DNA of 64,000 nt from an uncultured bacterium (GCA_965368975.1 CBDUPA010000011.1:160001-224000); one strand, 5' to 3'. Counted from the stretch's first letter, positions 37,904 through 52,993 are shown. A program made the numbers and translations. Notes: generated by a model from the sequence alone, not told the origin.

Positions 37904-37989
37904 TGTCACGAAAGACGCGGGCCACAGCACTCCTAGGATGGTGCGGCGGCGCTCTGCTCGTGCCAATTTATGCAGCATAGGAGGAATCA

Positions 37990-38178
37990 ATGATTCGGCG
38001 AAGTCGCAAGAAGCGCTTGAAGCTGCACCGGGAGATGCTCGGCTCTTTGGTGGAACAAGAGCTAGGCCAGGCGAAGGGTGGAAGTACCGTGCTTTGTACC
38101 CAAAGCGGTTCCTCCCAGGCCATCGAATCTTGTCCAGCCCTATTCTCGGGCTGTTGTCCCATTGCTGAGGGGCGTTAA
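37990..38178 (+). CDS. Precursor-like peptide P1: MIRRSRKKRLKLHREMLGSLVEQELGQAKGG|STVLCTQSGSSQAIESCPALFSGCCPIAEGR
   Basis: GGAGGA SD; conserved leader; double-Gly; Ser/Thr/Cys core. Confidence 0.85.
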   Translation: MIRRSRKKRLKLHREMLGSLVEQELGQAKGGSTVLCTQSGSSQAIESCPALFSGCCPIAEGR

Positions 38179-38224
38179 ATGCAAAAAAATCGTATTTATG
38201 CGCAATTACGGAAGGAAGTCGTAG

Positions 38225-38395
38225 ATGAAGCGCAAAGTAACCGAAAAGCGCACTTTGAGGTTGGTTCGTGAGACCCTCAAGGCACTCGAGAGCGCTGACT
38301 TGCCCAAGGTGCGTGGCGCTTACCACAGCTCACAGTTGTCTATCCCTACCATCGACGACGGTGACTCTTGTACTTGCTTCAGTCTGGGTATTTGA
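38225..38395 (+). CDS. Precursor-like peptide P2: MKRKVTEKRTLRLVRETLKALESADLPKVRGA|YHSSQLSIPTIDDGDSCTCFSLGI (not in ORF track)
   Basis: Manual translation, 56 aa; GGAAGG SD; same leader. Confidence 0.85.
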   Translation: MKRKVTEKRTLRLVRETLKALESADLPKVRGAYHSSQLSIPTIDDGDSCTCFSLGI

Positions 38396-38430
38396 AACCT
38401 GTTACGCACTATGCCCGAAGGCCGGCCGAC

Positions 38431-38563
38431 TCACCGCCAGTCTCCATGGACCTGGAACGCTGCCCAAAGCAAACTGCGTCCGCGACGCTTCCCCAGCGGT
38501 ACCACGCAGCAACTCAAATTTGTGCCTGGCGTAGGGCCGTGGCCCTGGGCAGTCCTGCTGTCC
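38431..38563 (-). pseudogene. Relic of the 3' end of a TPR-CHAT gene
   Basis: Aligns by eye to 42527-42658; with frameshifts reads AGLPRATALRQAQI/ELLRGTAGEASRTQFA/WAAFQVHGDWR*. Confidence 0.88.
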
Positions 38564-38624
38564 CCAAGAGACGCAAACGCAAGCGATGCCTGCCCCGTTT
38601 CTGTCCATAGCCTTAGAGGCCGGG

Positions 38625-38893
38625 GAGTATCTGGCCGCCAAGCCCGGTCCGATCATTGCTCAGGAGTACGTCTCCGGCCGCGATTCCTGGAACTGAACGC
38701 CACTACGTCCGAGTTGGCGGACATCCACCATCCGCAGAATTCGCAGTGGGAAGCGTACCGAGTGCTCTTCCGCCAGTGGCGGGTTGCCTTTGAGATTGTG
38801 TGGCAGAATCGGGAAATGGGCGTCGAGGTGATGTCCTGGGAGCGCCCCTGAAGATGGTGGCGCTGTACTTTCTGGGGCGGCAGTGTCACGAAA
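38625..38893 (+). pseudogene. Degraded duplicate of the 3' end of the hydrolase-DedA-ATP-grasp gene, with internal deletion
   Basis: Matches ~37253-37316 joined to ~37704-37913 (LELN...PQNSQWEAYRVLFRQWR; ends agtgtcacgaaa in both copies). Confidence 0.88.
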
Positions 38894-38980
38894 TGTCGAA
38901 TTTCCGCACTCCTCGGTTGAGCGAGCTTTGCACTTCGTGCCGGAGCGCAACTTCTATTGCTTCGCGGTTCTGGAGGAGCT

Positions 38981-39140
38981 ATGCGCAACCTGAAACGGCT
39001 TGAGCAGCGTCTTCACCTGAGCAAGGAAACCTTGAAAAGGCTAGAAGCCCCCGATCTCCAGTTGGCTGTAGGTGGCAGTGTCAACAAATAGTGGTGCTTG
39101 GGTTTCCTGCCCCTCGTGTCCCACTTCTGCCTTGATGTGA
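38981..39140 (+). pseudogene. Precursor-like peptide P3, frameshifted: MRNLKRLEQRLHLSKETLKRLEAPDLQLAVGG|SVNK* (stop 39091); removing one A gives core SVNNSGAWVSCPSCPTSALM
   Basis: GGAGGAG SD; exact LxLxKx5L leader; repaired core carries the family SCP motif. Confidence 0.75.
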
Positions 39141-39226
39141 AGTGAAGAAATTGAGGTGCTCCCGGCTTCTACAGTGCCGGTATCTTGGGCAACAAATGGC
39201 TGCCATCAACGAATAGGAAGTGAATC

Positions 39227-39394
39227 ATGAAAAAGAACAAGTTCAGCGAAAAACTCGTGTTGCACCGTGACACGCTAGTTCAACTAGAGAATGGGAGACT
39301 AGTTACGGCCGTGAAAGGCGGGGGAGAAGAGTCGACAATAACAAGGAGCGCTGGCACTATGTCGTGTACGTCTGTTTGTATTGGTGCTATTTAG
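39227..39394 (+). CDS. Precursor-like peptide P4: MKKNKFSEKLVLHRDTLVQLENGRLVTAVKGG|GEESTITRSAGTMSCTSVCIGAI (not in ORF track)
   Basis: Manual translation, 55 aa; AGGAAG SD; same leader. Confidence 0.85.
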   Translation: MKKNKFSEKLVLHRDTLVQLENGRLVTAVKGGGEESTITRSAGTMSCTSVCIGAI

Positions 39395-39422
39395 CTCGCG
39401 CTGGCGTGGCGAATATTCCTTT

Positions 39423-42395
39423 TTAAGCGTAGTTTCCGTAAAACAGAAATGCTCCCCATGCATAGGGGGCAGAGAGTTCTGGATCCCCGCTGCCTATCAT
39501 CTCGATCTGTACCTGTTGGAGAGCAAGGATCGGCGGTGTTCCCGAAGCGAGTTTTTTATAAAACCTTGTCATTATTACGGCCGTCGATCTGTCAGCAATC
39601 GGCCATAAGGAACCGATCACTGCGCGGGCACCCACTACCTGAAACGCTAGAGCTAGACTGAGGGGCCCGTCGCCTCGCATTTCTCTGCCTAGAGCACTTT
39701 CGCAAGATGACAGCACAACAAGGTCTGTTCCTTGCAGACGGGTCTCGCTGAGAATCTCCCTCATCTCAAGAATGCCGTTATCTTTGCCAACTTCGACTTG
39801 CTCGGGTAGTGAGAGTAAGAGCGCTGGATGCAGTGGCCATTGTGAATCCGATAACGTGTGAGTTGCAAAATGCAGATACCGAGTTCGAAGGGTACCCTTG
39901 GCACGCTCTTCGATGGCGTCAGGTCCAAAGAAAATGCGACTTCTAGAACCGAAGAGCGCTCCGACCTGTTCGACTTCTGCCTGACTAAATGGCAGTTGGC
40001 GCAGCTTGAAGCCGCGATTCAGGGCGGCAAATACTTGCCCGTTGTCCATTAGCTGACCGTCGGCGGACTCAAGATGGATGGGAAACGACGGATTGCCGAA
40101 TGCCGTAAACTCTACCGGTGGTAACTCTGATGAGCTTCTTGATCTCAGCTCTGAATAGGACGATCCAGACAGGCCGAAGAAAAGGGCAACTTTCTCGATC
40201 AGGTAGTGGTCGTCAGTGCGTAGAGTGGACCAAGGCAGGGAATGCAAAGCTCCGTCAGGGAGGATCAGCAGTCTTTCGAAATCGCTTAGTGAGTGCCGCA
40301 ACGCGGGTGGAAAGAGAGCGATGAAGAGGTCTCGACCAACGACGCGAAGTCTGTCGAGTTTCTGTTGCCACTGCGGATGTTGCGGGTGCGCGCTGAGTAT
40401 GAGAGATCGTATTTGTTGAACTTTTCTCTGTACTTCGCCTTGGTTGATTGGCAGTGAATAGGTTGCCAGTTCCTGTCTGTTGCCGAGAGTAAAGACGAAG
40501 GACTCTTGCTCCGCAACGAAGAATGAAACCAAGAGCGTCTCTTGGTCGAGGGAACTCTGCATATCGCTGACTTGCTTGCCTTGATCTTGGGCACTGCTAC
40601 GGGGGCTGAGTTGTAAGGGCCGTACAGTGAACTGGCGAAGAAGTTTCTCGTAATCAAGCTTTGCCTGGAATAGCTCATCCCTGAGAGACTGTTCTTGCTG
40701 CCCTTGGTTCTGAGTTCTACCGACTAGGAGTTCGAATCGAAGCGAGTTCAGTTGCTCTTCCAACTTGAGTTTCAGGTGCTGAACAGTGGCAGGAACATCC
40801 ATTAGCTCCTTTGAAGCTTCATGCTCTGCTCGCATGATTCGGAAGCCCTGGGCTCTAGATCGCTCCAAAGTCTCAAATGCTTTGGTTGGCTGCCCTCCCC
40901 GAATAAGGGCTAGAACCAGATGCTGATAATAGTCATGGTGCCATGAACGATAGTCGACCCTCGATTGCGCCAGATGAGAGATCTGATGCTCTAGTGTGTT
41001 AACTGCATCTTGTAGCCATCTCAAGCTAGCGGTAGGGTTTCCGCCGTTGGCCTCTAGGAGTCCTCGATCTCTTTGAAACTCTGCTAGCCACAAGGTTTCT
41101 GAGGCTAGCTCCTGCACGATCTCAATGCCACGATCAGAGGCTTTCCGGGCTTCGGTAAGTTCTCCAGATTCCCACAAAATCTTGGCGAGCTGATTTTCCG
41201 TCTCGGCGGTCCAATACGAGTTTCGACTTTCCTGAAGTCGGATCTCGCGAGCCTGAAGAATCAGGGCTCTTGCCATCTCCAAGTTACCTTGAGCTTGATG
41301 CAGTCGAGCCAGTAAGACGAGTGTGTTAGCAATACGCGGTGATTCTGTTGTACCTTCCGACCTTCTACTTAGAGCCAGTGATGCAGTCGCAAGGCGGATA
41401 CCTTCTTCGATAGTGTTGGTTAATAGACAGATTCTAGCGGAGCGCATTAGTAGCTCGGCTGTTCGGTGGCTTTCTGGGTGGTGTTGCTGCAGGATCCTTA
41501 GTGCAGTTGTGTAGTGTGACGAAGCTGAAACCGGCCTTCTTCGCCATTCGTCCAATTTTCCTAGTTGCCGGAAAGTCTCTGCAAGTAAGACTGGACGGGC
41601 GTTGCCCGCTTGAAAGTTACGAAGAGCCCTCTGAAGCCAATACTCGGCTCGGTCGTGCTCTGCTTGCATGCGAGCAGTGACGCCCAGTTGAAGGTAAGTA
41701 CCTCCGAGTAGATAACTCTTCGGTGCCCTAGTCTCAAGGATGTCTTGCGCATATTCTAGATATGTCTGTGACTCTTCTAATGCGAGTTCTTGTCCCAAGA
41801 TGAGTCCCAGGCAGCCGAGGGTGTAAGCTTTCTCAACGCTATCTACTTTGACCTGTTGAATGGACTGTAGTGCGCGCCGGCAGAGAGCTTCACCTTGATT
41901 CCAGTCTTCCTGCAGGAAGAGGATGATACCAAGTCGAAAGTATGCTCTTGATCTTAGTCTTGGTTCTTCTTGCCTCTCAGAGAGCAGCACAGCTTGCTCG
42001 TAGTACCAGCGTGCACCTGTGAAGTCATCGCGATCTTCTGCTAGGTTGCCGAGGGCAATTTGTACTTCCGCCTTCTCTGATGGGTAGACGGTCCAGTTTA
42101 GAGTCGTGCGAAGTACCCGCTCGGCCAGTTGATATTCACTTTCTGCATTCGTCCATTCTTCAGGGTGCAGTATTTCCTGTGCTTGGTTCCACAATGCTTG
42201 AGCCAGCGGTAGGCTAAAACTGGCTCGCGTATAGAGTGGAGACAGCTCCTGCCAAGGCACTACAGCTTCTGCTCCTTGTGCTGCTGTGAATCCCTGTGAT
42301 GTTCCTCGCTTCAGCAATAACGACAAAAAGAGGAGACAGATCAAGCCCAGGTCAGGGAACCTTGGGTGCTTGGACATCATGCAGGGCTGCTTCAT
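39423..42395 (-). CDS. TPR-CHAT (caspase-like) protein 1 with N-terminal hydrophobic segment
   Basis: TPR array; ERSRAQ; ILPDGALHSLPW; HFATHT and VLSSC (His/Cys dyad); SLWPI; WGAF. Confidence 0.92.
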   Translation of the reverse strand: MKQPCMMSKHPRFPDLGLICLLFLSLLLKRGTSQGFTAAQGAEAVVPWQELSPLYTRASFSLPLAQALWNQAQEILHPEEWTNAESEYQLAERVLRTTLNWTVYPSEKAEVQIALGNLAEDRDDFTGARWYYEQAVLLSERQEEPRLRSRAYFRLGIILFLQEDWNQGEALCRRALQSIQQVKVDSVEKAYTLGCLGLILGQELALEESQTYLEYAQDILETRAPKSYLLGGTYLQLGVTARMQAEHDRAEYWLQRALRNFQAGNARPVLLAETFRQLGKLDEWRRRPVSASSHYTTALRILQQHHPESHRTAELLMRSARICLLTNTIEEGIRLATASLALSRRSEGTTESPRIANTLVLLARLHQAQGNLEMARALILQAREIRLQESRNSYWTAETENQLAKILWESGELTEARKASDRGIEIVQELASETLWLAEFQRDRGLLEANGGNPTASLRWLQDAVNTLEHQISHLAQSRVDYRSWHHDYYQHLVLALIRGGQPTKAFETLERSRAQGFRIMRAEHEASKELMDVPATVQHLKLKLEEQLNSLRFELLVGRTQNQGQQEQSLRDELFQAKLDYEKLLRQFTVRPLQLSPRSSAQDQGKQVSDMQSSLDQETLLVSFFVAEQESFVFTLGNRQELATYSLPINQGEVQRKVQQIRSLILSAHPQHPQWQQKLDRLRVVGRDLFIALFPPALRHSLSDFERLLILPDGALHSLPWSTLRTDDHYLIEKVALFFGLSGSSYSELRSRSSSELPPVEFTAFGNPSFPIHLESADGQLMDNGQVFAALNRGFKLRQLPFSQAEVEQVGALFGSRSRIFFGPDAIEERAKGTLRTRYLHFATHTLSDSQWPLHPALLLSLPEQVEVGKDNGILEMREILSETRLQGTDLVVLSSCESALGREMRGDGPLSLALAFQVVGARAVIGSLWPIADRSTAVIMTRFYKKLASGTPPILALQQVQIEMIGSGDPELSAPYAWGAFLFYGNYA

Positions 42396-42526
42396 TCGTT
42401 TCCTAAACCGACACCGCTAGTCGTCGTAACCTGAAGCGACACGCCAGTGTGCCTTTCATTCCTAGAGATGGGCTAGGGCCGGGCGTGAGCAGTTGGCGAT
42501 AGTCGACGTGTTCAGACGGTGTCAGC

Positions 42527-45505: not shown

Positions 45506-45650
45506 GTTACAACTCCATCGAGAATGGCTGACGCTTCTAGACGCTCAGCAGCTGACTGCGGCTACGGCTGCAGCTACGCAGGATCCGTCTTCCACGGCGA
45601 TCTTTTCCTGTCCGCAATGTGGGATGAATACATTTCCCATCGACGTCTAA
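45474..45650 (+). CDS. Precursor-like peptide P5: MRKRSSRSKSKLQLHREWLTLLDAQQLTAATAA|ATQDPSSTAIFSCPQCGMNTFPIDV (not in ORF track; leader/core junction inferred)
   Basis: Manual translation, 58 aa; AAAGGAG SD at 45461-45467; LQLHRE leader; SCPQC core. Confidence 0.82.
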   Translation: MRKRSSRSKSKLQLHREWLTLLDAQQLTAATAAATQDPSSTAIFSCPQCGMNTFPIDV

Positions 45651-45779
45651 TCGGTGCGTCGGCCGCTGGTTTTCGTGTTCGGGCCAGTGGCTGCCTTACA
45701 AGTAGACGCGCAATCTGGGGCAGGAAGTGTCAGACAAGGAGCACAAACATATGGATGCATGTATCCAAGAGGTGTCACA

Positions 45780-45944
45780 ATGCGAAGATTCACGAAGAAG
45801 CGCTATTCGATTCGACTGCACCGAGAGACCTTGGTGCGGCTCGAGGACGCTCACCTGAAGCAGGTTGCCGCGGCAAGTATCAAGGCATCGTGTCCGCTGA
45901 CCGACACGGGAGCCCCTGCGGTCAGCCCGGGGAGCTGCTGCTAG
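45780..45944 (+). CDS. Precursor-like peptide P6: MRRFTKKRYSIRLHRETLVRLEDAHLKQVAAA|SIKASCPLTDTGAPAVSPGSCC
   Basis: GAGGTG SD; likely start is internal to track ORF 45654..45944. Confidence 0.85.
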   Translation: MRRFTKKRYSIRLHRETLVRLEDAHLKQVAAASIKASCPLTDTGAPAVSPGSCC

Positions 45945-45948
45945 AAAC

Positions 45949-45972
45949 AAAAAAAGCGTCCTTGTGGACGCT
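45949..45972 (-). terminator. Rho-independent terminator for the kinase operon
   Basis: agcgtcc-ttgt-ggacgct hairpin preceded by A7 (U-tract on minus strand). Confidence 0.75.
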
Positions 45973-46106
45973 GGGGAGCAGAAGTACCTTGTTGTCCGAC
46001 CCTTCTGAGTCGCGGAGCACCACGTGAGTGGCGGCTCTGTACTTAGACGCGCAAGCAGCGCGGAAAAGTGTCAAACGCGGCGCAGAAATTTTTCGAGGTC
46101 GGCACT

Positions 46107-48743
46107 TTAGCGTTCCTGTTCCGGGCTCTGGGGCTCCAGCTTCTGTAAGCGCTGCCAGGCTCTTCGAGTCTTGGGAGCGTCGGGCCCCAGAGCCTGGAGC
46201 AGGCTTTCGTAGCCTTGTCGGAGCAACAGGGTCGCGGCTTCGGTGTCGCCCAGCGCCAGCAAACAAGCTCCCAGGACGCTATCGACTTCCGCCAATGACA
46301 CCTGAGGGTGTTTGTAGACCTCTTCCAGGGTCTGCCTGGCCAGCCGCGCTTGCTGTAGGGCCTCGTCCAATCTTCCTTGCGCGAGCAAGATTTCGGCATA
46401 GTTGCGCAGGAATGCGCCAAGGTTCGGTCTGCCGATTCTCTGTTGGGACCGCTGAATCCGCAGAGCCTCCTCGAGGTGAGCCTGCGCACCGGCCAGATCC
46501 TGTCTCAGGAAGAGGACGTAGCCCAAGTTGTTGTGTGCGGGGGCCAGTTTCCTATGGAGCGGTTGCTTCTCGTAGACCTTCTGTCGCAGTTCGAGGCTCC
46601 TTCGCAGTTCTTCCTCTGCCGCTGCCAGCCGTCCCTGGTATTGCAGGATCCGACCTAGATTGCTGTGCGTCGTGGCAAGCGCCGTCGGGGAAACCTGGAG
46701 GTCGATTCTCGTCTCGAGCGCTTTGCGGCCCAGGGCCTCGGCCTCCTCGAGCTGGCCGAGTTCGAGGAGCAAGGTAGAGAGGTTGTGCCGAACAGTCGCG
46801 ATGAACTCGGCATCCACGTCGGCTTCTGCGAGTCCGAATTCTAGGGCTTTGCGAAAATTGACTTCAGCCTTGCTCGGCGGCCCAATACGGCGGCGGATAC
46901 CGCCGAGGTGGTTGAAGGCTTCGGCGAACTGCGCGCGACTTCCGTGATGCTTCTCGAGCAGTTCGATGGCTTCGAGGATGTACGGTTCGCCGGCTTTGTG
47001 GTCACCGAAGTAACTCAGGTTGCCTCCCAGGTTGAGCAGCGTTTCGGCCAGCTGGTGCGGCTGGTCCAGCTGACGTCCCAGGTTGACGGCCTCGCGGTAG
47101 AGAGGCAGGACTTCTTCGGCGCCCCGGCCCAGGTCTTTGAGAAGTCTGCCAACTTCGTCGAGCAGGTGAACGCGGATCTCCGGGTCCTCGCCCAGCATTT
47201 CTGGGAGTTCGTCCAGGACCTGCTGGATCAGCTCACCGACGGTGAGTCCTGGGTCGCCGGTGTCCGGGCTGGCGCCTTCAAGGATCCGCGTGGTGATGTT
47301 CAGGGCGCCCCTGGCGACCCGCTGTTCCGTTTGCGCTTGCACGGCAGCCTTGCGGGCTCGCTGTCGCAAGACTTCCGCGTAGACGCTGAAGCTGGTGAGC
47401 AGGAAGATGAAGGTTGCCGCTGCGGCCACAGCCAGGGCGTTTCTGCGCACAAACTTCCAGGCTCTGTAGATGGGCGTGCTCTGGTGCGCCCTGACCGGCA
47501 GGCCTTGGAGGTAGTTCTGCACATCCTCGCTCAGCTGCTCGACGGAGGCGTAGCGCCGGACGGGCTTCTTCTCTAGCGCCATGAGCACGATGCTGTCGAG
47601 ATCGCCACTCAGCCGCCGCCGCAGGCTGGGGGCGTCGAGGTCACGGCTGGTGCTGACCGACGCGGGATCGAGATGCAGCACCGAGCCGTCCGCACGCTCG
47701 CGTGTCTCGTCACGATCGATCGCCTGGCTCGGAGGTTCCGGTTCCTCGTTGCACAGGCGCTCGAGCTTGGCGGGCAGAGACGTGGTGGGACGGTGTGGAC
47801 GGTGTCCGGAGAGCAGCTCGTAGAGCAAGACGCCAAGGGCGTAGACATCGCTCGCCGTGGTCACCGCCTCACCCCGCAGCTGTTCGGGACTGGCGTAGTC
47901 GAGGGTCAGGGGGGCGGGACCGCCGGTATGCAGAGCGGTCGGAGCCATGGTCCGGTCGGGTACGTCGCCGGCCAGCAACTTGGCGACCCCGAAGTCGAGG
48001 AGTTTCGGTTCGCCCTCGGCCGTGATCAGGATATTGCTCGGCTTGAGGTCGCGGTGCAGAACCAGGCTCTGGTGGAAAAAGTGAACGGCGGAGCAGATCT
48101 TGCGGAACAGGTGCAGCCGCTGCGTGATGCTCAGACGGTGGCGGTCGCAGTACTGGTCTATCGGTTCGCCCTCGATATGTTCCATGACCAGGTAGGGACG
48201 GCCGTCCTCGGTGCTGCCACCGTCGAGCAGGCGGGCGATGTTCGGGTGGTTGAGCTGGGCCAGGATCCGCCGCTCCTGCTGGAAACGCAGCACGGTCTGT
48301 TGGGCGCTGGCGCCGTGCAGGAGCTTCAGGGCTCCCTTCTGTATGAAATCCTCATGGATCCGCTCGGCGAGGTAGACCGTCCCCATTCCCCCGCGCCCCA
48401 ATTCGTGTAGGACGCGCCAGCCCGCGACTTGGGTTCCGGAGGCCAGTTCCGGCACCAGGGCGCCTCCCTCGAGGCTCACCTCCCCGCGAGGCGCGCCGGC
48501 GACCGCCGGCTGTTCCAAGAACTCGCCCATGTCACCGTGGGAAGCGACCAGCGACGAGACTTCACGGAACAGGTCTTCATCTTCGGCGCAGGCGCTGCGC
48601 AGCCAGCCGAGCCGTTGGTTGGTGTCGACATCGAGCGCTCGGTTGAGTAGGTCCTCAATGTGCAGCCAGCGTTCCGGCGTCATCGGGGTCGAACCGGTTC
48701 CAGCGTCTGGTGTGGGAGCTGGATTGTCGCATTCCGGGGGCAT
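46107..48743 (-). CDS. Membrane Ser/Thr protein kinase with C-terminal TPR domain
   Basis: GRGGMGTVY, HRDLKPSN, DFG, YASPEQ, one TM, TPRs. Confidence 0.95.
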   Translation of the reverse strand: MPPECDNPAPTPDAGTGSTPMTPERWLHIEDLLNRALDVDTNQRLGWLRSACAEDEDLFREVSSLVASHGDMGEFLEQPAVAGAPRGEVSLEGGALVPELASGTQVAGWRVLHELGRGGMGTVYLAERIHEDFIQKGALKLLHGASAQQTVLRFQQERRILAQLNHPNIARLLDGGSTEDGRPYLVMEHIEGEPIDQYCDRHRLSITQRLHLFRKICSAVHFFHQSLVLHRDLKPSNILITAEGEPKLLDFGVAKLLAGDVPDRTMAPTALHTGGPAPLTLDYASPEQLRGEAVTTASDVYALGVLLYELLSGHRPHRPTTSLPAKLERLCNEEPEPPSQAIDRDETRERADGSVLHLDPASVSTSRDLDAPSLRRRLSGDLDSIVLMALEKKPVRRYASVEQLSEDVQNYLQGLPVRAHQSTPIYRAWKFVRRNALAVAAAATFIFLLTSFSVYAEVLRQRARKAAVQAQTEQRVARGALNITTRILEGASPDTGDPGLTVGELIQQVLDELPEMLGEDPEIRVHLLDEVGRLLKDLGRGAEEVLPLYREAVNLGRQLDQPHQLAETLLNLGGNLSYFGDHKAGEPYILEAIELLEKHHGSRAQFAEAFNHLGGIRRRIGPPSKAEVNFRKALEFGLAEADVDAEFIATVRHNLSTLLLELGQLEEAEALGRKALETRIDLQVSPTALATTHSNLGRILQYQGRLAAAEEELRRSLELRQKVYEKQPLHRKLAPAHNNLGYVLFLRQDLAGAQAHLEEALRIQRSQQRIGRPNLGAFLRNYAEILLAQGRLDEALQQARLARQTLEEVYKHPQVSLAEVDSVLGACLLALGDTEAATLLLRQGYESLLQALGPDAPKTRRAWQRLQKLEPQSPEQER

Positions 48744-48755
48744 CGCGGAGCCTCC

Positions 48756-49388
48756 TCAGGACGGCTGCAGCGCACGGTGCAGCCAGCTCTTGGCTGCCCG
48801 CCACTTGTAGCGGACGGTCGAGGTGGAGATATTCAGTACGGTAGCGATCTCGTCATGGGTGAGGCCGGCGAAAAAACGCATCTCGACGATTCGACTGCCT
48901 TCGGGGTTGAAGCGTGCTAGGTCTTCGAGCGCGACGTCGAGGCGCAGTAGCTCGTGGTCGCTCATCTCGGCTTGCAGCAAGACGCCATCGTCAGCCAAGG
49001 CGTCCAGCGAAATCGGCACGTTGTCACCGCCGCGCTTGACGGCGGTGCGCCGGCGTGCGTGGTCGACCAGGATGCGCCGCATCTGCCGTGCCGCAAAGCC
49101 GAAGAATTGGGCACGGTCATGCCACTGTACGCGGCGCCGGTTCATCAGGTCGAGGAAGAGCTCGTTGACCACCGCAGTCGGTTGCAGGGTATGGCTCTGG
49201 TTCTCGCGCACGAAGTACCCACGCGCGATCCGCTGCAGCTGGTCGTAAACCAGTGGCGTCAACCGCTCCAGGGCGTCGGGTTTGCCGTCGCTCCAGGCGT
49301 GTAGCAGGACGGTGATGTCCCCGCGTGGCGAACTGCCGGTTCTTTCCGGTGTGGCGTCGCGGGATGGAGCTGGGGTGTCGTCGTCCAT
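48756..49388 (-). CDS. ECF sigma factor, TIGR02999/ECF43-like (kinase-associated)
   Basis: ITVLLHAW, LVYDQL, HTLQPTAVVNE, MRRILVDHAR, VEMRFFAGLT. Confidence 0.92.
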   Translation of the reverse strand: MDDDTPAPSRDATPERTGSSPRGDITVLLHAWSDGKPDALERLTPLVYDQLQRIARGYFVRENQSHTLQPTAVVNELFLDLMNRRRVQWHDRAQFFGFAARQMRRILVDHARRRTAVKRGGDNVPISLDALADDGVLLQAEMSDHELLRLDVALEDLARFNPEGSRIVEMRFFAGLTHDEIATVLNISTSTVRYKWRAAKSWLHRALQPS

Positions 49389-49391
49389 AGG

Positions 49392-51587
49392 CTACTCCGT
49401 GGAGGGGGCGATCAGCTCGAGGTCGTAGGTGGCGGTGCGCGTGGCGTCGCGTAATCGAAAGACCTGCAACTCGAGGCGGGTCCCCGGTTCGACGCCAGTG
49501 AGTCTGAAGAGGATCTCTGCATGCCCGTCCGATACCGCGTGCAACCGCTCCTGGCGTTTGTGCTTTGCGTCAACCAGGTCGATGCGATAGGGCTCGCTAG
49601 CTTCTTCGACCTTGATGCTCAGAGTCAGTTCGCCCTGACGGACTACGACCGGGAACGTGTCATCGAGACTCCTGGTCACTGAAGGCAACGGTAAGTCCGT
49701 GCGCTCGAGACCGTATATGGCCATGGCATCGCCGGTGCTCTGGAGCCACCGATGGCGCAGCTCTCCGAGCTGGTTGTGCTGCCCGATCACCGTGCTCAGC
49801 AGGCCGAGGCTGACGGTGAGTAGCACGGCTGCAGCCCAGGCCAGGCGTTGTTGCCAGGCGCGCGAGCCTTGCGCGGCCGTTTTGCTCGGTGCGGGGAACG
49901 GATGGACCGTTGCCGAAGCGCCGACCGCTCGCTCGAGCGCGGCACGGGCTGGCAGCACGGCGTCGGAAAGCCAGAAGTCAACTTCTGGGTCCGCGTTCGG
50001 GACGTCTTCATTGCCGTGGCTCCTGCTGGCCCGCCAACACGCCCGCACGCGCTCGAGGTGAGCGGGCTCGAGCGTAGCGTAGCGATGTTCAGCCGACAGC
50101 GCCTGGGAAGGCACCTGGAGCGCCAGGCCGCAGCGCAGTGTCATCGGGCCGCCTTCGGAGGCGGGGATGTCGACGTCAGCCGAAGTGAACAAGGGCGCAT
50201 CGTCAACGGGTACCAGCCACAGAGTCTCCACACCTGCCTCTTCAGCGTGCAGCACCAGCCAGTCGACACCGAGGGTGGCCGTCTCGGGGCGTCGTAAGAG
50301 GTCGCCGGTCTCCAGTGGGCGCGCAGCCCCCTCTTGGGCATCCCCCTCAGCCAGAAAGCGCTGGTGTCGAAGGATCGCAGCCCTGTTGAGGTGAGCACTG
50401 AGGCTTGCGAGCTTCGTTTCGTCGTCGACCATCGTCGAGCCTTTCTGAGCGGCCTCGTCGGGAGGTTCGGGTGCCGTGGTCGCTTCGCCACTTTCTTGAC
50501 ACAGGCGGCTGAACTCTCGCAGCTGATCGTACAGGGCTCCCATGGAGTTGCGCGGAATCCCCAGCTGTTCCGCCAGCGCGCGGCGCGACGGTACCTTCCG
50601 CGTCTCTGGATGGCTCGCGTACAGGCTCAGGAACTGCCAGAGCCTCTCTAGGTGTTCACGCACTTTGGGCTTCAAGTCGGCAGCCGCCAGGTGCTGGTCG
50701 ACGCAGCGCAGCAGGAACGCGAAGCTTTCACGCTCGGCCAGCGAAGTGTCGGGTTGCACGCGCCGGACCAGGCGCAGGAGGCCGGGTTCTTCACCCTCCT
50801 CGAAGGCGCTCTCGCCCTGCTCGGTGTCGAAGAGAGCGCCCCAACGGTGGCGAACGTCCAGCTTGATCGGCTCTATCAGGTCGCGGAAGCGGAACAATGC
50901 GACGTGCTGTTGGGGAAGCTGCTGGAACAGGCCGCGAGCCGTTTCCTGCAGTTCGACCAGGCCACGGCCTTGTGCCGTCAGCAAGTCCGGCAGTAGCTGG
51001 TCGTTCCAGGCCGGCACGAGTTCGGTAAGGCGCGCGCGAATCTCTGCCTCTTCTGCTTCGGTGGGGCCGTCGATCGCAGGGTCGAAACCCACCAGCGTGA
51101 TGTTGCGCAGGCGCTCGTCACCATCGAGCACGAAGAGTCGACCGGTGTTGATCAGCTCCAGCGCCGCCTTGCGCAACACACTGAAGACGCGGAAGCCGAG
51201 AGGGTCGTGCTTCTTCTGGGTGTCGTGCACGAAGTTGCGCACGTTGCGCCGCACCAGGCCTTCCACATTGGCTCCGGCCTGCAACTGGCGCACGAGGTAG
51301 GCATAGCGGTCCAAGAAGATGTACCGGAAGCACTCGGCGACCAGTTCCCAGGCCTCGCTGCGGAAGATGTCCGGAGGTTGCGTCGCTTGCGACCACGAGG
51401 AAACCCCGTACACCCCTAAGTATCCCGGTTGCCGGAGCCACAAGCCGCGCCGCCGGAGCTCCGCTTGGATCAGACGCCAAAGCGCAGTCAGGACAGCCTC
51501 GACCCGCTGGTCCGGTGGAGGTTCGTTCGAAACGGCCAAGGCCTCTAAGTAGTCGGTGAAGTGTCCTTCGCCGGAACCGCGATACAT
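49392..51587 (-). CDS. Hypothetical 731-aa protein: sigma-like/HTH N-terminal half, middle domain, TM helix, extracytoplasmic tail
   Basis: HTH-like PSRRALAEQLGIPRNSM; TM LAWAAAVLLTVSLGLL; 3 nt from ECF start. Confidence 0.7.
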   Translation of the reverse strand: MYRGSGEGHFTDYLEALAVSNEPPPDQRVEAVLTALWRLIQAELRRRGLWLRQPGYLGVYGVSSWSQATQPPDIFRSEAWELVAECFRYIFLDRYAYLVRQLQAGANVEGLVRRNVRNFVHDTQKKHDPLGFRVFSVLRKAALELINTGRLFVLDGDERLRNITLVGFDPAIDGPTEAEEAEIRARLTELVPAWNDQLLPDLLTAQGRGLVELQETARGLFQQLPQQHVALFRFRDLIEPIKLDVRHRWGALFDTEQGESAFEEGEEPGLLRLVRRVQPDTSLAERESFAFLLRCVDQHLAAADLKPKVREHLERLWQFLSLYASHPETRKVPSRRALAEQLGIPRNSMGALYDQLREFSRLCQESGEATTAPEPPDEAAQKGSTMVDDETKLASLSAHLNRAAILRHQRFLAEGDAQEGAARPLETGDLLRRPETATLGVDWLVLHAEEAGVETLWLVPVDDAPLFTSADVDIPASEGGPMTLRCGLALQVPSQALSAEHRYATLEPAHLERVRACWRASRSHGNEDVPNADPEVDFWLSDAVLPARAALERAVGASATVHPFPAPSKTAAQGSRAWQQRLAWAAAVLLTVSLGLLSTVIGQHNQLGELRHRWLQSTGDAMAIYGLERTDLPLPSVTRSLDDTFPVVVRQGELTLSIKVEEASEPYRIDLVDAKHKRQERLHAVSDGHAEILFRLTGVEPGTRLELQVFRLRDATRTATYDLELIAPSTE

Positions 51588-51904
51588 GCGTTTGTGCCCC
51601 CGTAGATTAAATCTCAGCTCAGCAATCTTTGGCTTAAGGATTCTAGCAGTCCACTCGGTTCCTGTTGGAACCTCGAACGAACATCGTCCCCGTGACCCTT
51701 TTTTGATCTTTCCGTGCCACTCGCAGAATGCCGTTTGTTAGTTCTCTACAACGGGCCGGATCCTGCCCCCGAATTCCCAGCCCACGCTGCTACCCCCCCT
51801 GAGTATCGGCCTTTGTGCCGGCCGGACGGCGTGTGCTGAAACGTCGAACAACGGATGGTTTGGAGGGGTCGCTCTGTCCATCCGGACACGAAGGAGTCAG
51901 GATT

Positions 51905-52993
51905 ATGAAGTTGCGAAACGCAGCTGCTGTTGGATCGATGATTGTTGTCTTGATTGGATTGTCGGTGATCGATGTCATGGGTGCGGAGAGTGCCCGAGGA
52001 GTTGTGACGGAACACATATCTCTCACGGACGCGAGCTACACCCTCCGGGCCAGTTCGTCGACCACGTTGATCCTCGAGGCCGAGCGGCGAGAGGTTGTGG
52101 TGGTAGAGCTTTCGGGGCGCACACCCGAGACCATCGCGAGACTGCGTGCGGACTCTCTGCCAGAAGTCGAGGTGCTGGAAGCGTCGCTGGGAAGGTGGCT
52201 CGTCGCACTGCCGCAGGCGGGAGACTACGAGCTCCTGGTGGAGGCCTCTGGCCCGTTCGAGGTTCGAATCGAAGCCTTTCGAGGGCGCACGGTGCAGCCG
52301 TGGTTCGCGGAGAGCGCGCTGAACGCACCAGAGTCGCCGACGGCGCTGCCGCCCACGGAGCCCGCCGTAGAGCCAACCGTAGAAGAACCCGTCGATGGCT
52401 CCCTGGAGCCGACCTCGCCGGACAGTGGAGAGCAGTCGGGTGGTGGCACCAGTGAAACCTACAATGAGGATCCAGTCACCGTGCGCTGGGTACCGAATCA
52501 GCCGGAGGGTCAACCGGGGACGCAGTCTGCGACAGTGCACCTACACAACGTTCTCGTCGAACTTCCCGAGGCGGGTATTTGGATGCGCGTCGAGCAGCAG
52601 GGGGCCTTGCGTTTACCGTTCTCGTCACAGGCCCGTGTCTATGCCCTCTGCGATAGCTCGACGTCTCTACTGCATCTGTGTGCGGCACCGATGGTTCAGG
52701 GAGGTTCGACGCAAGGAGACTTGCGCCCTGCAGACGAGCGGCGCCTCCACGCGTTCACGCTCGCGGCGCCTGCTCATATCGTCCTGGAAGGTACCGGAGA
52801 ACCGGATCTGCGCGGCCGTCTGTACGAGGCCACCGGTCGCATGCTGGCGATGGACGACGATGGCGGACCCGCGCTCGGCTTCCGTTTCGAGCGTCAGCTA
52901 CCCGCGGGACGCTATGTGCTGGAGGTTGATGCCGTAGCTGGCGGGGTCGGTCGCTACACACTTCACTTGGAGACGACCGACACTCAGCCGTAA
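51905..52993 (+). CDS. Exported protein with Pro/Glu linker and PPC-like (pre-peptidase C-terminal) domains
   Basis: AAGGAG SD, signal peptide, LAMDDDGG..FRFERQLPAGRYVLEV..GRYTL. Confidence 0.7.
   Translation: MKLRNAAAVGSMIVVLIGLSVIDVMGAESARGVVTEHISLTDASYTLRASSSTTLILEAERREVVVVELSGRTPETIARLRADSLPEVEVLEASLGRWLVALPQAGDYELLVEASGPFEVRIEAFRGRTVQPWFAESALNAPESPTALPPTEPAVEPTVEEPVDGSLEPTSPDSGEQSGGGTSETYNEDPVTVRWVPNQPEGQPGTQSATVHLHNVLVELPEAGIWMRVEQQGALRLPFSSQARVYALCDSSTSLLHLCAAPMVQGGSTQGDLRPADERRLHAFTLAAPAHIVLEGTGEPDLRGRLYEATGRMLAMDDDGGPALGFRFERQLPAGRYVLEVDAVAGGVGRYTLHLETTDTQP

Follow-up and report, generated by a model that had tools for sequence, protein, structure and literature searches.

Lanthipeptide-type precursor peptides and a TPR-CHAT, kinase and ECF sigma neighbourhood in an acidobacterial genome: probably two unrelated things

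The region that we analysed, part of a DNA stretch of 64,000 nucleotides (hereafter the window) from an acidobacterial genome of ~7.1 Mb (Acidobacteriota, Thermoanaerobaculia), probably contains two unrelated things that overlap, i.e. dispersed precursor peptides and a separate envelope-signalling module. As part of the same explanation, which we consider probable as a whole, the peptides P1-P6 would be ordinary members of a lanthipeptide-type precursor family of ~50 copies, lying beside the signalling module by happenstance. The features described in an earlier note on this DNA are real (six ORFs preceded by Shine-Dalgarno sites, two TPR-CHAT proteins, a TPR kinase, an ECF sigma factor, a 731-aa protein and a PPC-like protein). 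The peptide-CHAT system that it proposed is not supported by the leader homologues, which are scattered and associated with LanB/LanC rather than with CHAT or TPR genes. The features are the following (position in the window, strand, description).

35264-37903, +, 879-aa fusion protein (alpha/beta hydrolase, VTT/DedA membrane domain, ATP-grasp-like C-terminus); flanking gene, 3' end duplicated downstream
37990-38178, +, P1, 62-aa precursor peptide; leader end GG; 31-aa core with 4 Cys and 8 Ser/Thr
38225-38395, +, P2, 56-aa precursor peptide; leader end GA; core with 2 Cys; best full-length match P6
38430-38515, -, copy of the CHAT2 3' end, ~90 bp, 84-90% identical to 42526-42610 (repeats D5, D6)
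38617-38893, +, copy of the 3' end of the 879-aa gene in two pieces, 77-81% identical (repeats D1, D3, D4)
38981-39091, +, P3, leader plus 4-residue core; an in-frame TAG cuts the ORF
39227-39394, +, P4, 55-aa precursor peptide; leader end GG; core with 2 Cys and 8 Ser/Thr; NF038153 score 19.4 bits
39423-42395, -, CHAT1, predicted exported TPR-CHAT caspase-like protease; TPR and PF12770 (E 8e-62); signal-like N-terminus
42527-45505, -, CHAT2, predicted TPR-CHAT protease; TPR and PF12770 (E 6e-75); N-terminal membrane helix
45474-45650, +, P5, 58-aa precursor peptide; P1 paralogue; leader end AA
45780-45944, +, P6, 54-aa precursor peptide; P2 paralogue; leader end AA; core with 3 Cys
45955-45972, -, terminator-like hairpin with T-run, downstream of the kinase gene (by consensus scan only)
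46107-48743, -, Hanks-type Ser/Thr kinase; Pkinase 6.1e-40, TPR_12 5.2e-32; membrane helix ~436-454; C-terminal TPR, predicted periplasmic from hydropathy
48756-49388, -, ECF sigma factor; PF07638 3.3e-49, TIGR02999 2.5e-55
49392-51587, -, X731 (the 731-aa protein), predicted to span the membrane once; its family is uncharacterised; anchors the conserved neighbourhood
51815-52993, +, PPC-like exported protein, divergent from X731; hydrophobic segment 37-55

A dispersed family of precursor peptides

The six window peptides are encoded by small ORFs on the + strand, each with a GGAGG-like Shine-Dalgarno site 6-9 nt ahead of its ATG. A common leader had been claimed for them, and we found it in all six: a basic N-terminus, an LxLx(K/R)x5L motif and a leader end of GG, GA or AA. 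Reading through the TAG of P3 would give a Cys-containing core, and P3 is probably a disabled copy.

The genome has 53 leader peptides at 36 places. Across this family the leader is conserved and the cores are variable (median 29 aa, 3 Cys and 6 Ser/Thr; Cys in 52 of the 53 cores), and strong Shine-Dalgarno sites precede nearly all the 53 ORFs. Leader ends, in the 49 peptides whose leader was aligned over its full length, were GG in 29, GA in 13 and AA in 4 cases. Judged by its sequence, this leader is of the LxLxKx5L...GG type of class I lanthipeptides (NF038153), and the same motif with a GG end is given for the Bacteroidetes class I LanA leader in passages of PMC7268733.

NF038153 ('class I lanthipeptide' leader) was the only or the best NCBIfam match for five of the six window peptides, with scores of 12-19 bits (14.4 for P1). 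Its cut-off of 22 bits was passed by 16 same-genome paralogues, one of them between LanB and LanC, and none of 14 control genomes had a match. An HMM built from the six window peptides retrieved these paralogues as well. Two points count against the lanthipeptide reading: all six window peptides stay under this cut-off, P2 being without any match, and the AA leader end of P5 and P6 is a minority type (4/49).

The window (C11:160001-224000) gave no matches to LanC, LanB, C39 peptidase, radical SAM or YcaO, which confirms what the earlier note had stated for these families. At C13:45-52 kb we found a LanB of 1159 aa (Lant_dehydr_N 2.4e-167, Lant_dehydr_C 7.6e-66), two precursors and two LanC. 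LanB or LanC genes lie less than 500 bp from 5 of the 53 family peptides, the remaining 48 being far from any of them, and three C39 peptidase-ABC transporter ORFs (762-812 aa) are located elsewhere in the genome. LanC also adjoins members of the same peptide family in other genomes; among relatives it was found at 5 of 20 peptide places.

In our explanation, P1, P2, P4, P5 and P6 would be orphan members of a dispersed class I lanthipeptide-type precursor family with hypervariable Cys/Ser/Thr cores. They would be dehydrated and cyclised in trans by the single full-length LanB of the genome and its LanC partners, encoded on another contig, and as they leave the cell, one of the three C39 peptidase-ABC exporters would cleave off the leader at its GG-type site.

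Prochlorosins of marine cyanobacteria combine one LanM with dozens of dispersed ProcA precursors, which have one conserved leader and hypervariable cores. Here too there are dozens of precursors with a conserved leader and hypervariable cores, mostly far from the enzymes, and one machinery may serve many substrates. The leader, however, is of class I type and not of Nif11 type, LanB and LanC are separate proteins in place of LanM, and a single LanB, or a single enzyme set, for ~50 substrates is proposed by analogy. Most prochlorosin precursors are encoded far from their synthetase, according to passages of PMC7268733. Class I lanthipeptide precursors of the Bacteroidetes type (pinensin family; NF038153; passages of PMC7268733) resemble our peptides in the leader motif, the GG-type end and the Cys/Ser/Thr cores, with LanB, LanC and C39-ABC encoded in the same genome here. 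They differ in that our family belongs to the Acidobacteriota (Thermoanaerobaculia), its six window copies are under the cut-off and 48 of its 53 members are far from LanB/LanC.

Local duplication and rearrangement

The peptide cores had been described as unrelated, which does not hold for all of them. In fact, P1/P5 (46% over 57 aa, E 9e-8) and P2/P6 (47% over 45 aa) are best full-length matches, the closest full-length paralogues of P1 being P5 and a peptide at C7:256563. As judged by these alignments, P5/P6 duplicate P1/P2 and the 'interleaved' layout of peptides and CHATs is a local rearrangement; the three peptide 'pairs' would derive from local duplication and rearrangement of one two-peptide cassette.

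What had been taken for the relic of a decayed CHAT gene is the ~90 bp copy of the CHAT2 3' end, followed by the copy of the 3' end of the 879-aa gene. Precisely, a - strand ORF (38402-38656) resembles the CHAT2 C-terminus and another ORF (38411-38851) the C-terminus of the 879-aa protein, whose copied 3' end has an internal deletion of ~390 bp. The 879-aa protein matched the Pfam families Abhydrolase_1 (8.5e-33) and VTT_dom (1.2e-17) and, weakly, RimK/ATP-grasp. P5 and CHAT2, on opposite strands, overlap at the TTG called as the CHAT2 start, and in the GC profile CHAT1 lies inside a low-GC island (50-53% GC).

By arithmetic from the place counts, ~1.4 pairs of peptide places at most 8 kb apart are expected, given 36 places in 7.1 Mb, and on this basis the pattern of the window peptides is no greater than expected from chance plus duplication. 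What counts against our explanation is that 6 of the 53 family peptides (11%), duplicates retained, are inside 8 kb around the CHAT genes.

A putative envelope-signalling neighbourhood

The ECF gene lies 12 nt ahead of the kinase start and 3 nt past the X731 stop, and the hairpin at 45955-45972 would stop the X731/ECF/kinase transcript ahead of CHAT2. X731 has no Pfam match; its own family numbers 2419 representatives at E <= 0.001. The X731 model (pLDDT 78.4) starts with a helical domain of high confidence (10-370), after which come a beta domain (420-555), a membrane helix (~578-622) and, as a small tail, a beta-sandwich; no PDB fold matched it at E <= 0.001. A weak helix-turn-helix signal at ~330-400 (NCBIfam MocR-like 1.3e-4, PDB GntR 0.037) is under the curated cut-offs. 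As regards the PPC label, it finds no Pfam or NCBIfam match to back it, but 29 of 30 language-model look-alikes (Atlas features, score 0.93) are of PPC families.

CHAT1 and CHAT2 are 37% identical and both keep the His/Cys dyad (His846/Cys898 and His847/Cys899, respectively), as previously noted, in columns invariant in all 72 aligned CHAT domains. The CHAT2 model (pLDDT 88.5) consists of a helix (2-44), a TPR region (63-603) and a CHAT domain (~620-990), and its Foldseek matches include Csx29 (8eey_B, 4.6e-16), separase (~1e-15) and DdvA (8rot_A, 1.5e-14). Because both proteins have an N-terminal signal or membrane segment, according to hydropathy and the CHAT2 model, they are predicted to act outside the cytoplasm.

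Among 74 X731 loci of other Acidobacteriota genomes, an ECF gene was present in 39-40, CHAT in 34, a kinase in 32 and a PPC-like gene in 19. Directly downstream of X731 there was a CHAT gene in 18/58 loci and an ECF gene in 11/58, and a PPC-like gene was divergent upstream, as in the window, in 15 of the 66 loci with room upstream. In this genome, a CHAT gene lies ~1.06 kb from two of the three other X731 paralogues. These data support CHAT, kinase, ECF, X731 and PPC-like genes as a recurrent envelope-signalling neighbourhood that has not been described; DdvA/DdvS and kinase-activated ECFs come nearest to it. The earlier claim of an undescribed system is supported for these genes, which belong together, and is not supported for the leader peptides as a part of it. 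In our explanation, X731, ECF and kinase, with the two exported TPR-CHATs and the PPC-like protein, would form a separate envelope-signalling module recurring across Thermoanaerobaculia, in which periplasmic TPR, CHAT and PPC parts may sense a cue, the kinase may activate the ECF sigma factor and CHAT may be a regulated protease, as proposed for DdvA.

DdvA-DdvS of Myxococcus xanthus pairs, in passages of PMC11506125, an ECF sigma factor with its anti-sigma factor, a transmembrane protein that has a TPR-CHAT in the periplasm, and DdvA-like proteins are reported there only in Myxococcota and one Comamonas. The likeness extends to a membrane-anchored or exported TPR-CHAT of ~990 aa, the His-Cys dyad, an ECF sigma factor in the locus and the match of the CHAT2 model to DdvA, whereas CHAT1 and CHAT2 lack the cytoplasmic zinc-binding anti-sigma domain and the ECF here is paired with a Hanks kinase and X731. 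In Craspase (the TPR-CHAT Csx29 with Cas7-11, Csx30 and RpoE), a caspase-like protease is likewise linked to an ECF-type sigma factor, and no structure matched the CHAT2 model better than Csx29; Csx29, however, is cytoplasmic and RNA-guided, CHAT1 and CHAT2 are predicted to be exported, and the score with the NCBIfam Csx29 model was 24 bits, where the cut-off is 300. CBASS or CRISPR genes were absent from the annotated ORFs of the window past its first 28 kb. By gene context, the module resembles kinase-activated ECFs (ECF43-like; EcfK/PknS, EcfP/PknT), in which an ECF with no obvious anti-sigma factor adjoins a transmembrane Hanks kinase, and differs from them by the additional conserved neighbours X731, TPR-CHAT and PPC-like. 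Kinase-associated groups are listed in the ECF classification (PMC7826278), the main text of which has no occurrence of 'CHAT', and EcfK/PknS (PMC13147305) serves as the comparison for kinase-activated ECFs.

Relation between the peptides and the module

Of the 34 peptide places that lie elsewhere in the genome, none was within 3 kb of a CHAT gene (0.59 expected by permutation), 3.2 kb being the shortest distance between CHAT and any non-window family peptide, and these places showed no enrichment near the kinase, ECF or X731 families. In the 59 nearest neighbours of 31 peptide places there are 98 Pfam families, tRNA synthetases and methylmalonyl-CoA mutase among them. In relatives, no CHAT, kinase, ECF or X731 family gene occurred within 1.5 kb of 20 peptide places. 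None of 29 CHAT2-homologue loci had a leader, and in five relatives that have leaders, none of the 8 X731 loci was within 10 kb of an NF038153 match. No ECF-type or other common motif was found upstream of 47 peptide genes (best 6-mer p 4.6e-5 against 4096 tests). Genome-wide and in relatives, therefore, leader homologues were scattered with no CHAT link, the outcome that the earlier note had itself named as speaking against its core claim.

Leader peptides occurred in 8 of the 74 X731 loci, six of which belong to one 9-row clade (SH-aLRT 100, quick tree). In 6 of the 9 loci of this clade the peptide genes have a Pkinase-PD40 kinase on one side and a short X731 on the other, while the flanks differ, which suggests a real peptide-kinase/X731 link in that one lineage. 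Adjacency of peptides to X731-associated kinases was seen 5-6 times against ~1 expected, by rough arithmetic that ignores kinship.

Exported mature peptides could be periplasmic cues for the TPR of the kinase and/or the TPR-CHATs, with output via X731 and ECF, i.e. lanthipeptide autoinduction with a Hanks kinase and an ECF replacing LanRK. This clade favours such peptide-ligand signalling, as do the duplicated peptide pairs flanking the module in the window and the predicted extracytoplasmic position of all the sensor parts, where an exported peptide would be. We consider it unlikely for the window, given the missing enrichment at the 34 other places, the 0/20 count in relatives and the lack of a common upstream motif. 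Moreover, the window X731 is outside the leader-bearing clade, which has a PD40 and not a TPR kinase sensor and no CHAT. Because one X731 clade keeps leaders beside the kinase, the idea is weakened for the window but may hold elsewhere.

Local regulators occur in many bacteriocin loci, and the module, or X731 alone, might act on the adjacent peptide genes at the level of transcription and sense no peptides. At L137, L141 and L169 the peptide genes are directly upstream of a short X731 on the same strand (gaps of 4-94 bp), and the helix-turn-helix signal of X731 points the same way. That signal is nevertheless below any curated cut-off, the X731 model matches no DNA-binding fold, the 47 upstream regions share no motif, and the window peptides are on the strand opposite to X731 and 4-11 kb off, so that we hold such regulation to be quite improbable.

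That CHAT1/CHAT2 cut the leaders at the GG/GA/AA site, as also proposed earlier, is very improbable and close to refuted by distribution: the intact dyad, the end of P4 29 bp from the CHAT1 stop and the lack of another peptidase gene within 64 kb would suit it, but CHAT is lacking near the 47 other peptides that have this leader, and the conserved partner of CHAT is X731. It is also topologically unlikely because each CHAT starts with a signal or membrane segment and hence would lie outside the cytoplasm, whereas GG-type leaders are normally cut inside it by the C39 domain of the exporter (passages of PMC7268733), and the genome has three C39 ORFs. A reading of the small ORFs as unexpressed, with a chance likeness to a leader, is hardly credible, considering their Shine-Dalgarno sites, the conserved leader against variable cores, the 16 paralogues recognised by the curated NF038153 against 0/14 control genomes, and the LanC genes that adjoin the same family in other genomes.

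Six putative lanthipeptide precursors and their family

The genome studied (G000) comprises 7.1 Mb in 59 contigs, and its nearest public relatives belong to the class Thermoanaerobaculia of the Acidobacteriota. All the six small ORFs claimed by the earlier note, whose observation was largely right, were present as described once two coordinates had been corrected.

Genes of the window considered here (P1 to P6 are leader-peptide ORFs, each with a GGAGG-like site before its ATG)
37990-38178, + strand: P1, small ORF
38225-38395, + strand: P2, small ORF
38981-39091, + strand: P3, small ORF
39227-39394, + strand: P4, small ORF
39423-42395, - strand: CHAT1, TPR-CHAT protein (PF12770, 8e-62)
42527-45505, - strand: CHAT2, TPR-CHAT protein (PF12770, 6e-75)
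45474-45650, + strand: P5, small ORF
45780-45944, + strand: P6, small ORF
46107-48743, - strand: Hanks kinase with TPR repeats (domain search)
48756-49388, - strand: ECF sigma factor of the PF07638/TIGR02999 type
49392-51587, - strand: X731, membrane protein of 731 aa without any Pfam match
51815-52993, + strand: PPC-like protein of 392 aa

The flanks of this locus carry housekeeping genes (DAP epimerase, ApbE, SufE, a rhodanese, a PLP enzyme and a symporter). An unusual fusion gene of 879 aa (35264-37903), joining an alpha/beta hydrolase, a VTT/DedA membrane domain and an ATP-grasp-like C-terminus, stops 87 bp 5′ of P1; an alpha/beta hydrolase also adjoins two other places of G000, that is genomic sites with at least one leader peptide (C18:54 kb and C8:157 kb, where C is a contig). 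No match to LanC, LanB, C39 peptidase, radical SAM or YcaO was found within the 64-kb window, which for these enzymes bears out what had been read from the sequence.

The only or best NCBIfam match for five of the six peptides was NF038153 (lant_leader_L1a, "class I lanthipeptide"), with 14.4 bits for P1, 13.4 for P3, 19.4 for P4, 13.1 for P5, 12.1 for P6 and no match for P2, none of the six reaching the curated cut-off of 22 bits. A Pfam search of the six gave nothing of note, and neither Nif11 nor NHLP was matched in Pfam (E ≤ 10) or NCBIfam (E ≤ 1). All six translations contain LxLx(K/R)x5L, with Ile at the first Leu in P6, and their leaders end in GG (P1, P3, P4), GA (P2) or AA (P5, P6); five of them have cores that combine 2-4 Cys with 6-8 Ser/Thr, whereas P3 is truncated. 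The motif and the GG-type end are as in the class I LanA of Bacteroidetes, the leaders of which are described by Walker et al. as often Gly-Gly ended and accompanied by a C39 protease (PMC7268733).

An HMM of the six leaders was run against all the six-frame ORFs of G000, in which it matched 48 ORFs at E ≤ 0.5 and, after two rounds, 53 peptides at E ≤ 0.01 in 36 places. The curated NF038153 model gave 28 matches at E ≤ 0.1, of which 16 above the cut-off, and these 16 paralogues were grouped with P1-P6 by one HMM; the curated model had no match in 14 control genomes. The family cores are hypervariable (median 29 aa, 3 Cys and 6 Ser/Thr over 53 peptides) and all of them contain Cys except that of the truncated P3 (52/53), while the leaders, in the 49 peptides with full leader alignment, end in GG (29), GA (13), AA (4), AG (2) or EG (1). 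Nearly all the 53 ORFs have a strong Shine-Dalgarno site. No shared promoter motif was found upstream of 47 peptide genes after correction (the best upstream 6-mer was seen 8 times against 1.3 expected, p 4.6e-5, 4096 tests), and a sigma-70 scan of 37800-46300 returned 0 sites. On the evidence of their sequences, the window peptides are putative class I lanthipeptide-type precursors, a known type, in an unusually large dispersed family.

On one strand of contig 13 there are a full-length LanB (Lant_dehydr_N 2.4e-167, Lant_dehydr_C 7.6e-66), the sole one of G000, two family peptides and two LanC genes, and two more peptides are directly upstream of lone LanC genes. In all, five of the 53 peptides are within 500 bp of LanB or LanC, the remaining 48 being farther, and a C39 peptidase domain occurs in three ORFs of 762-812 aa. 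Since LanB, LanC and C39 ORFs are all present elsewhere in the genome, every class I maturation step is encoded in trans, and we infer that the contig-13 enzymes act on P1-P6. The pattern in G000, with many precursors that share a leader, have variable cores and mostly lie far from the synthetase, is that of the prochlorosins, but these have a Nif11/NHLP leader and LanM whereas the enzymes adjacent to members of the family described here are LanB and LanC; one LanB with many precursors would be the class I counterpart of the prochlorosin strategy. As for natural products, G000 (about 50 precursors by the leader HMM, 21 NF038153 matches) and at least five other Thermoanaerobaculia genomes appear to be rich in predicted class I-type precursors, and mining tools looking only around a synthetase would miss most such peptides.

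Some further places were noted. In a relative, six tandem leader peptides are flanked by LanC and a C39-ABC gene (G007:C7:27577-28991; loci L086, L092, L097, L102 and L107), and this array forms a compact family cluster. At C11:154508-154654, 5.3 kb before the window, a 444-aa frame weakly matches LANC_like, with 24 bits and over model positions 3-48 only. The region C27:29146-39829 holds the only YcaO of G000, 7 kb from the leader peptide at C27:37436-37717, and a radical SAM 1.6 kb from it, and some family peptides may feed such other RiPP enzymes. MacB/FtsX-type permeases of 830-900 aa near three places (C14:189593-192094, C23:15532-18183, C5:66710-69412) could be immunity or export genes, or just members of an abundant acidobacterial family. 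Mutually similar ORFs, the largest of about 8,950 aa, are within 7 kb of five places (C12:193716-220574, C17:35197-43662, C18:45538-49809, C3:8822-10186, C5:260679-276665).

Peptides, CHAT genes and the interleaved layout

The earlier note had proposed a peptide/TPR-CHAT receptor system or, alternatively, CHAT as the leader peptidase. G000 has 23 CHAT matches, and the nearest of them to the peptides outside the window are at 3.2, 4.4, 7.7 and 8.5 kb. We shuffled the peptide places 1000 times, considering the 34 places outside the window. A CHAT paralogue was within 3 kb of none of them (expected 0.59) and within 10 kb of 2 (1.3 expected, p 0.39); one of the 85 kinase paralogues was within 1 kb of 3 (1.8 expected, p 0.27), and ECF and X731 were not enriched near these places. 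Only TPR-kinase-like ORFs gave a nominal signal (within 10 kb, 6 against 2.6; uncorrected p 0.04). Over 31 places, the 59 nearest neighbours held 98 Pfam families (Pkinase 3, LanC 2, LanB 1), and among the other neighbours there were a sulfatase, MacB/FtsX permeases, an M12 peptidase, a NACHT protein, a class I tRNA synthetase and a methylmalonyl-CoA mutase.

The relatives covered were 41 genomes (G000 included), 5 further genomes and 74 loci with an X731 relative. NF038153 matches were present in 8 of the 41 genomes, G000 counted, and in none of the five genomes of the same family. Around the 20 distinct peptide places taken from other genomes (1.5-kb flanks) we found no relative of CHAT, kinase, ECF or X731, and LanC at 5, in 2 of which there was a strong C39-ABC match too; conversely, no leader ORF was found in the CHAT2-homologue loci of 29 relatives (0/29; 1.5-kb flanks, the upstream side of some genes being uncovered). 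In five leader-bearing relatives, the eight X731 loci were all more than 10 kb from any NF038153 match, the smallest distance being 15.5 kb. The leaders are hence scattered, with LanC and not CHAT beside them in relatives, and the proposed tie of the peptides to the CHAT module is not supported; the earlier note had itself given such a distribution as grounds for refutation. The literature searched described no peptide-CHAT system, and dealt with lanthipeptides of Thermoanaerobaculia only as other clusters.

The local pattern has traces of its own history. P5 is a paralogue of P1 (46% over 57 aa) and P6 of P2 (47% over 45 aa), therefore one two-peptide cassette was duplicated. Between P2 and P3 (38402-38893) there is a copy of the last ~90 bp of CHAT2 (84-90% identical), followed by two fragments copied from the 3′ end of the 879-aa gene that precedes P1 (77-81% identical, ~390 bp missing), the two gene-end copies standing back-to-back. 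These copies are junction scars of rearrangement, and what had been called a CHAT relic is the copied CHAT2 3′ end and no decayed CHAT gene. The peptide DNA between these conserved flanks is unalignable, as if the cassette had been exchanged, and the three peptide-pair regions are too diverged for a readable DNA alignment. GC content falls to 50-53% over 38.9-42.5 kb (P3, P4 and CHAT1), from 60-66% in the adjoining DNA on both sides, and changes abruptly at the CHAT1/CHAT2 boundary. This low GC, together with the 37% identity of CHAT1 to CHAT2, suggests a separate origin of the P3-P4-CHAT1 stretch, and 38900-42500 may be an acquired segment. P3 itself is cut after a 4-residue core by an in-frame TAG (39090-39092), past which the frame stays open for 17 more residues, two of them Cys. 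For 36 places in 7.1 Mb, the expected number of pairs within 8 kb is about 1.4, and more such pairs occur in G000; duplication in a dispersed gene family can yield a striking local pattern.

The CHAT, kinase and ECF genes around X731

The earlier note had also sensed an undescribed CHAT/kinase/ECF module, and this does recur around X731 in other genomes. With the window proteins as queries of local searches, the 74 X731 loci of other genomes showed ECF in 39-40, CHAT in 34, kinase in 32 and a PPC-like gene in 19; at least one of the four was in 63 loci, and ECF and CHAT together in 20. The next gene 3′ of X731 on the same strand was CHAT in 18 and ECF in 11 of the 58 loci with room, and a divergent PPC-like gene was upstream in 15 of 66. 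G000 has three other X731 paralogues, two of them about 1.06 kb from a CHAT gene. In the window, the gaps are 3 nt between X731 and ECF and 12 nt between ECF and kinase, with a terminator-like hairpin 3′ of the kinase gene; a membrane helix separates the kinase and TPR parts of the kinase, and the PPC-like protein has a hydrophobic segment at its N-terminus.

None of the 23 word-index homologues of X731 has a Pfam domain and no Pfam model exists for the family, which counts 2419 representatives at E ≤ 0.001 in a large library, in a long (~700-800 aa) and a short form (~360-420 aa). In many genomes X731 is split into a gene for the N-domain and one for the middle domain and membrane part, and wide conservation is limited to residues up to ~610, the periplasmic tail being variable. 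In the predicted structure (pLDDT 78.4), a helical N-domain, modelled with confidence, is followed by a beta middle domain, a single membrane helix and a tail that forms a small beta-sandwich, and the domains gave no fold match in the PDB at E ≤ 0.001. The middle domain is faintly like MazF-type barrels (TM 0.64-0.66 of target, E 0.03-0.13) and the tail faintly like FN3 and RsgI4 sensor domains (E 0.03-0.1), both of which we take as leads only. A diverged sigma factor was considered and rejected as unsupported: the profile-profile comparison with the 39 neighbouring ECFs gave 0.4% probability (E 0.14) and overlapped over a 13-column HTH-like stretch only, with no sigma fold among the Foldseek matches. 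Co-folding of X731 residues 1-580 with the ECF, both as alignments, returned "no answer" (score 0.00), which is uninformative either way.

For CHAT2, a sequence search against PDB chains gave kinesin-light-chain TPRs only, and a fold search was therefore needed. Its model (pLDDT 88.5, pTM 0.85), in which a TPR superhelix and a CHAT domain come after an N-terminal helix, matched Csx29 (4.6e-16), human separase (~1e-15) and the anti-sigma factor DdvA (1.5e-14) in Foldseek. The His and Cys dyad residues, correctly read as kept in both CHATs, are in columns invariant in 72/72 aligned CHAT domains. CHAT1 and CHAT2 are TPR-CHAT proteins of the separase/craspase/DdvA fold, the TPR superhelix being followed by a CHAT domain that has the His-Cys dyad. 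The match to the model of Csx29, the type III-E craspase (NF041237), is 24.1 bits against a cut-off of 300. DdvA has a cytoplasmic zinc-binding anti-sigma domain before its membrane helix, which CHAT1 and CHAT2 lack: the hydrophobic segment of CHAT2 starts after about 20 residues, CHAT1 begins with a signal-like segment, and no Pfam anti-sigma domain was matched in either. As regards a DdvA-like pairing, export of the CHATs is predicted and the ECF is 3.3 kb away, inside a separate tight X731-ECF-kinase unit. RRNPP receptors have a cytoplasmic TPR and a re-imported peptide, whereas here a signal or membrane segment comes before the TPR domains, and neither an HTH nor a phosphatase domain, as for RRNPP output, was found by Pfam in CHAT1, CHAT2 or the kinase. 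The arrangement of the genes is like that of kinase-activated ECFs (ECF43-like), the window ECF adjoining a Hanks kinase without an anti-sigma gene, unless X731 is one; kinase-associated ECF groups exist (PMC7826278). In PADLOC, the kinase was matched by generic kinase models alone, and X731, ECF and the PPC-like protein had no match.

Together, the module genes make up an uncharacterised variant of TPR-CHAT/ECF and kinase/ECF signalling. Its periplasmic TPR, CHAT and PPC parts would probably sense an envelope cue, with the kinase activating the ECF, as has been shown for other adjoining kinase-ECF pairs (PMC13147305), and the exported CHAT would be a regulated protease, as proposed for DdvA (PMC11506125), possibly cutting X731. 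That TPR-CHAT, ECF, Hanks kinase and PPC-like genes keep company with X731 suggests an unstudied coupling of a caspase-like protease to a sigma factor, which would stand outside CRISPR and outside Myxococcota.

Leader peptides at X731 loci

A leader ORF (E ≤ 0.01) was found in 8 of the 74 X731 loci. Six of these (L137, L141, L145, L148, L150 and L169) are in one clade of nine rows, together with L142, L154 and L172, with an SH-aLRT of 100 in a maximum-likelihood tree built quickly from 74 N-domains (no row dropped, several long branches, a careful search being unfinished); the other two are singletons. In the clade, the peptide genes are between a Pkinase-PD40 kinase and a short X731, three on the same strand, 4-94 bp upstream, and three on the opposite strand (6/9 loci), and the flanking genes are unrelated. 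This order of kinase, peptide and X731, a single arrangement that has been retained, hints at a functional link within that lineage; the window X731 falls outside the clade. No LanB or LanC was found within 10 kb of the clade peptide loci. The kinases beside peptide-bearing X731 loci were also considered as class III/IV lanthipeptide synthetases and rejected, being Pkinase plus PD40 without a LanC part. The five genomes with peptide-bearing X731 loci, chosen because of their matches, have 18-32 NF038153 matches each, therefore chance adjacency is not rare.

A broader reading, to which we give a low probability, is that X731 anchors an undescribed envelope signalling system of Thermoanaerobaculia, in which an exported TPR-CHAT caspase-like protease, a sensor Hanks kinase carrying TPR or PD40 and a PPC-like protein would control the ECF via X731 and secreted lanthipeptide-type peptides would be a cue or a regulated output in at least one clade, possibly also in the window. 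Compared with DdvA/DdvS, the X731 system would be a split, kinase-coupled counterpart. As a minor observation, an NRPS module adjoins the peptide-bearing locus L141 in its genome.
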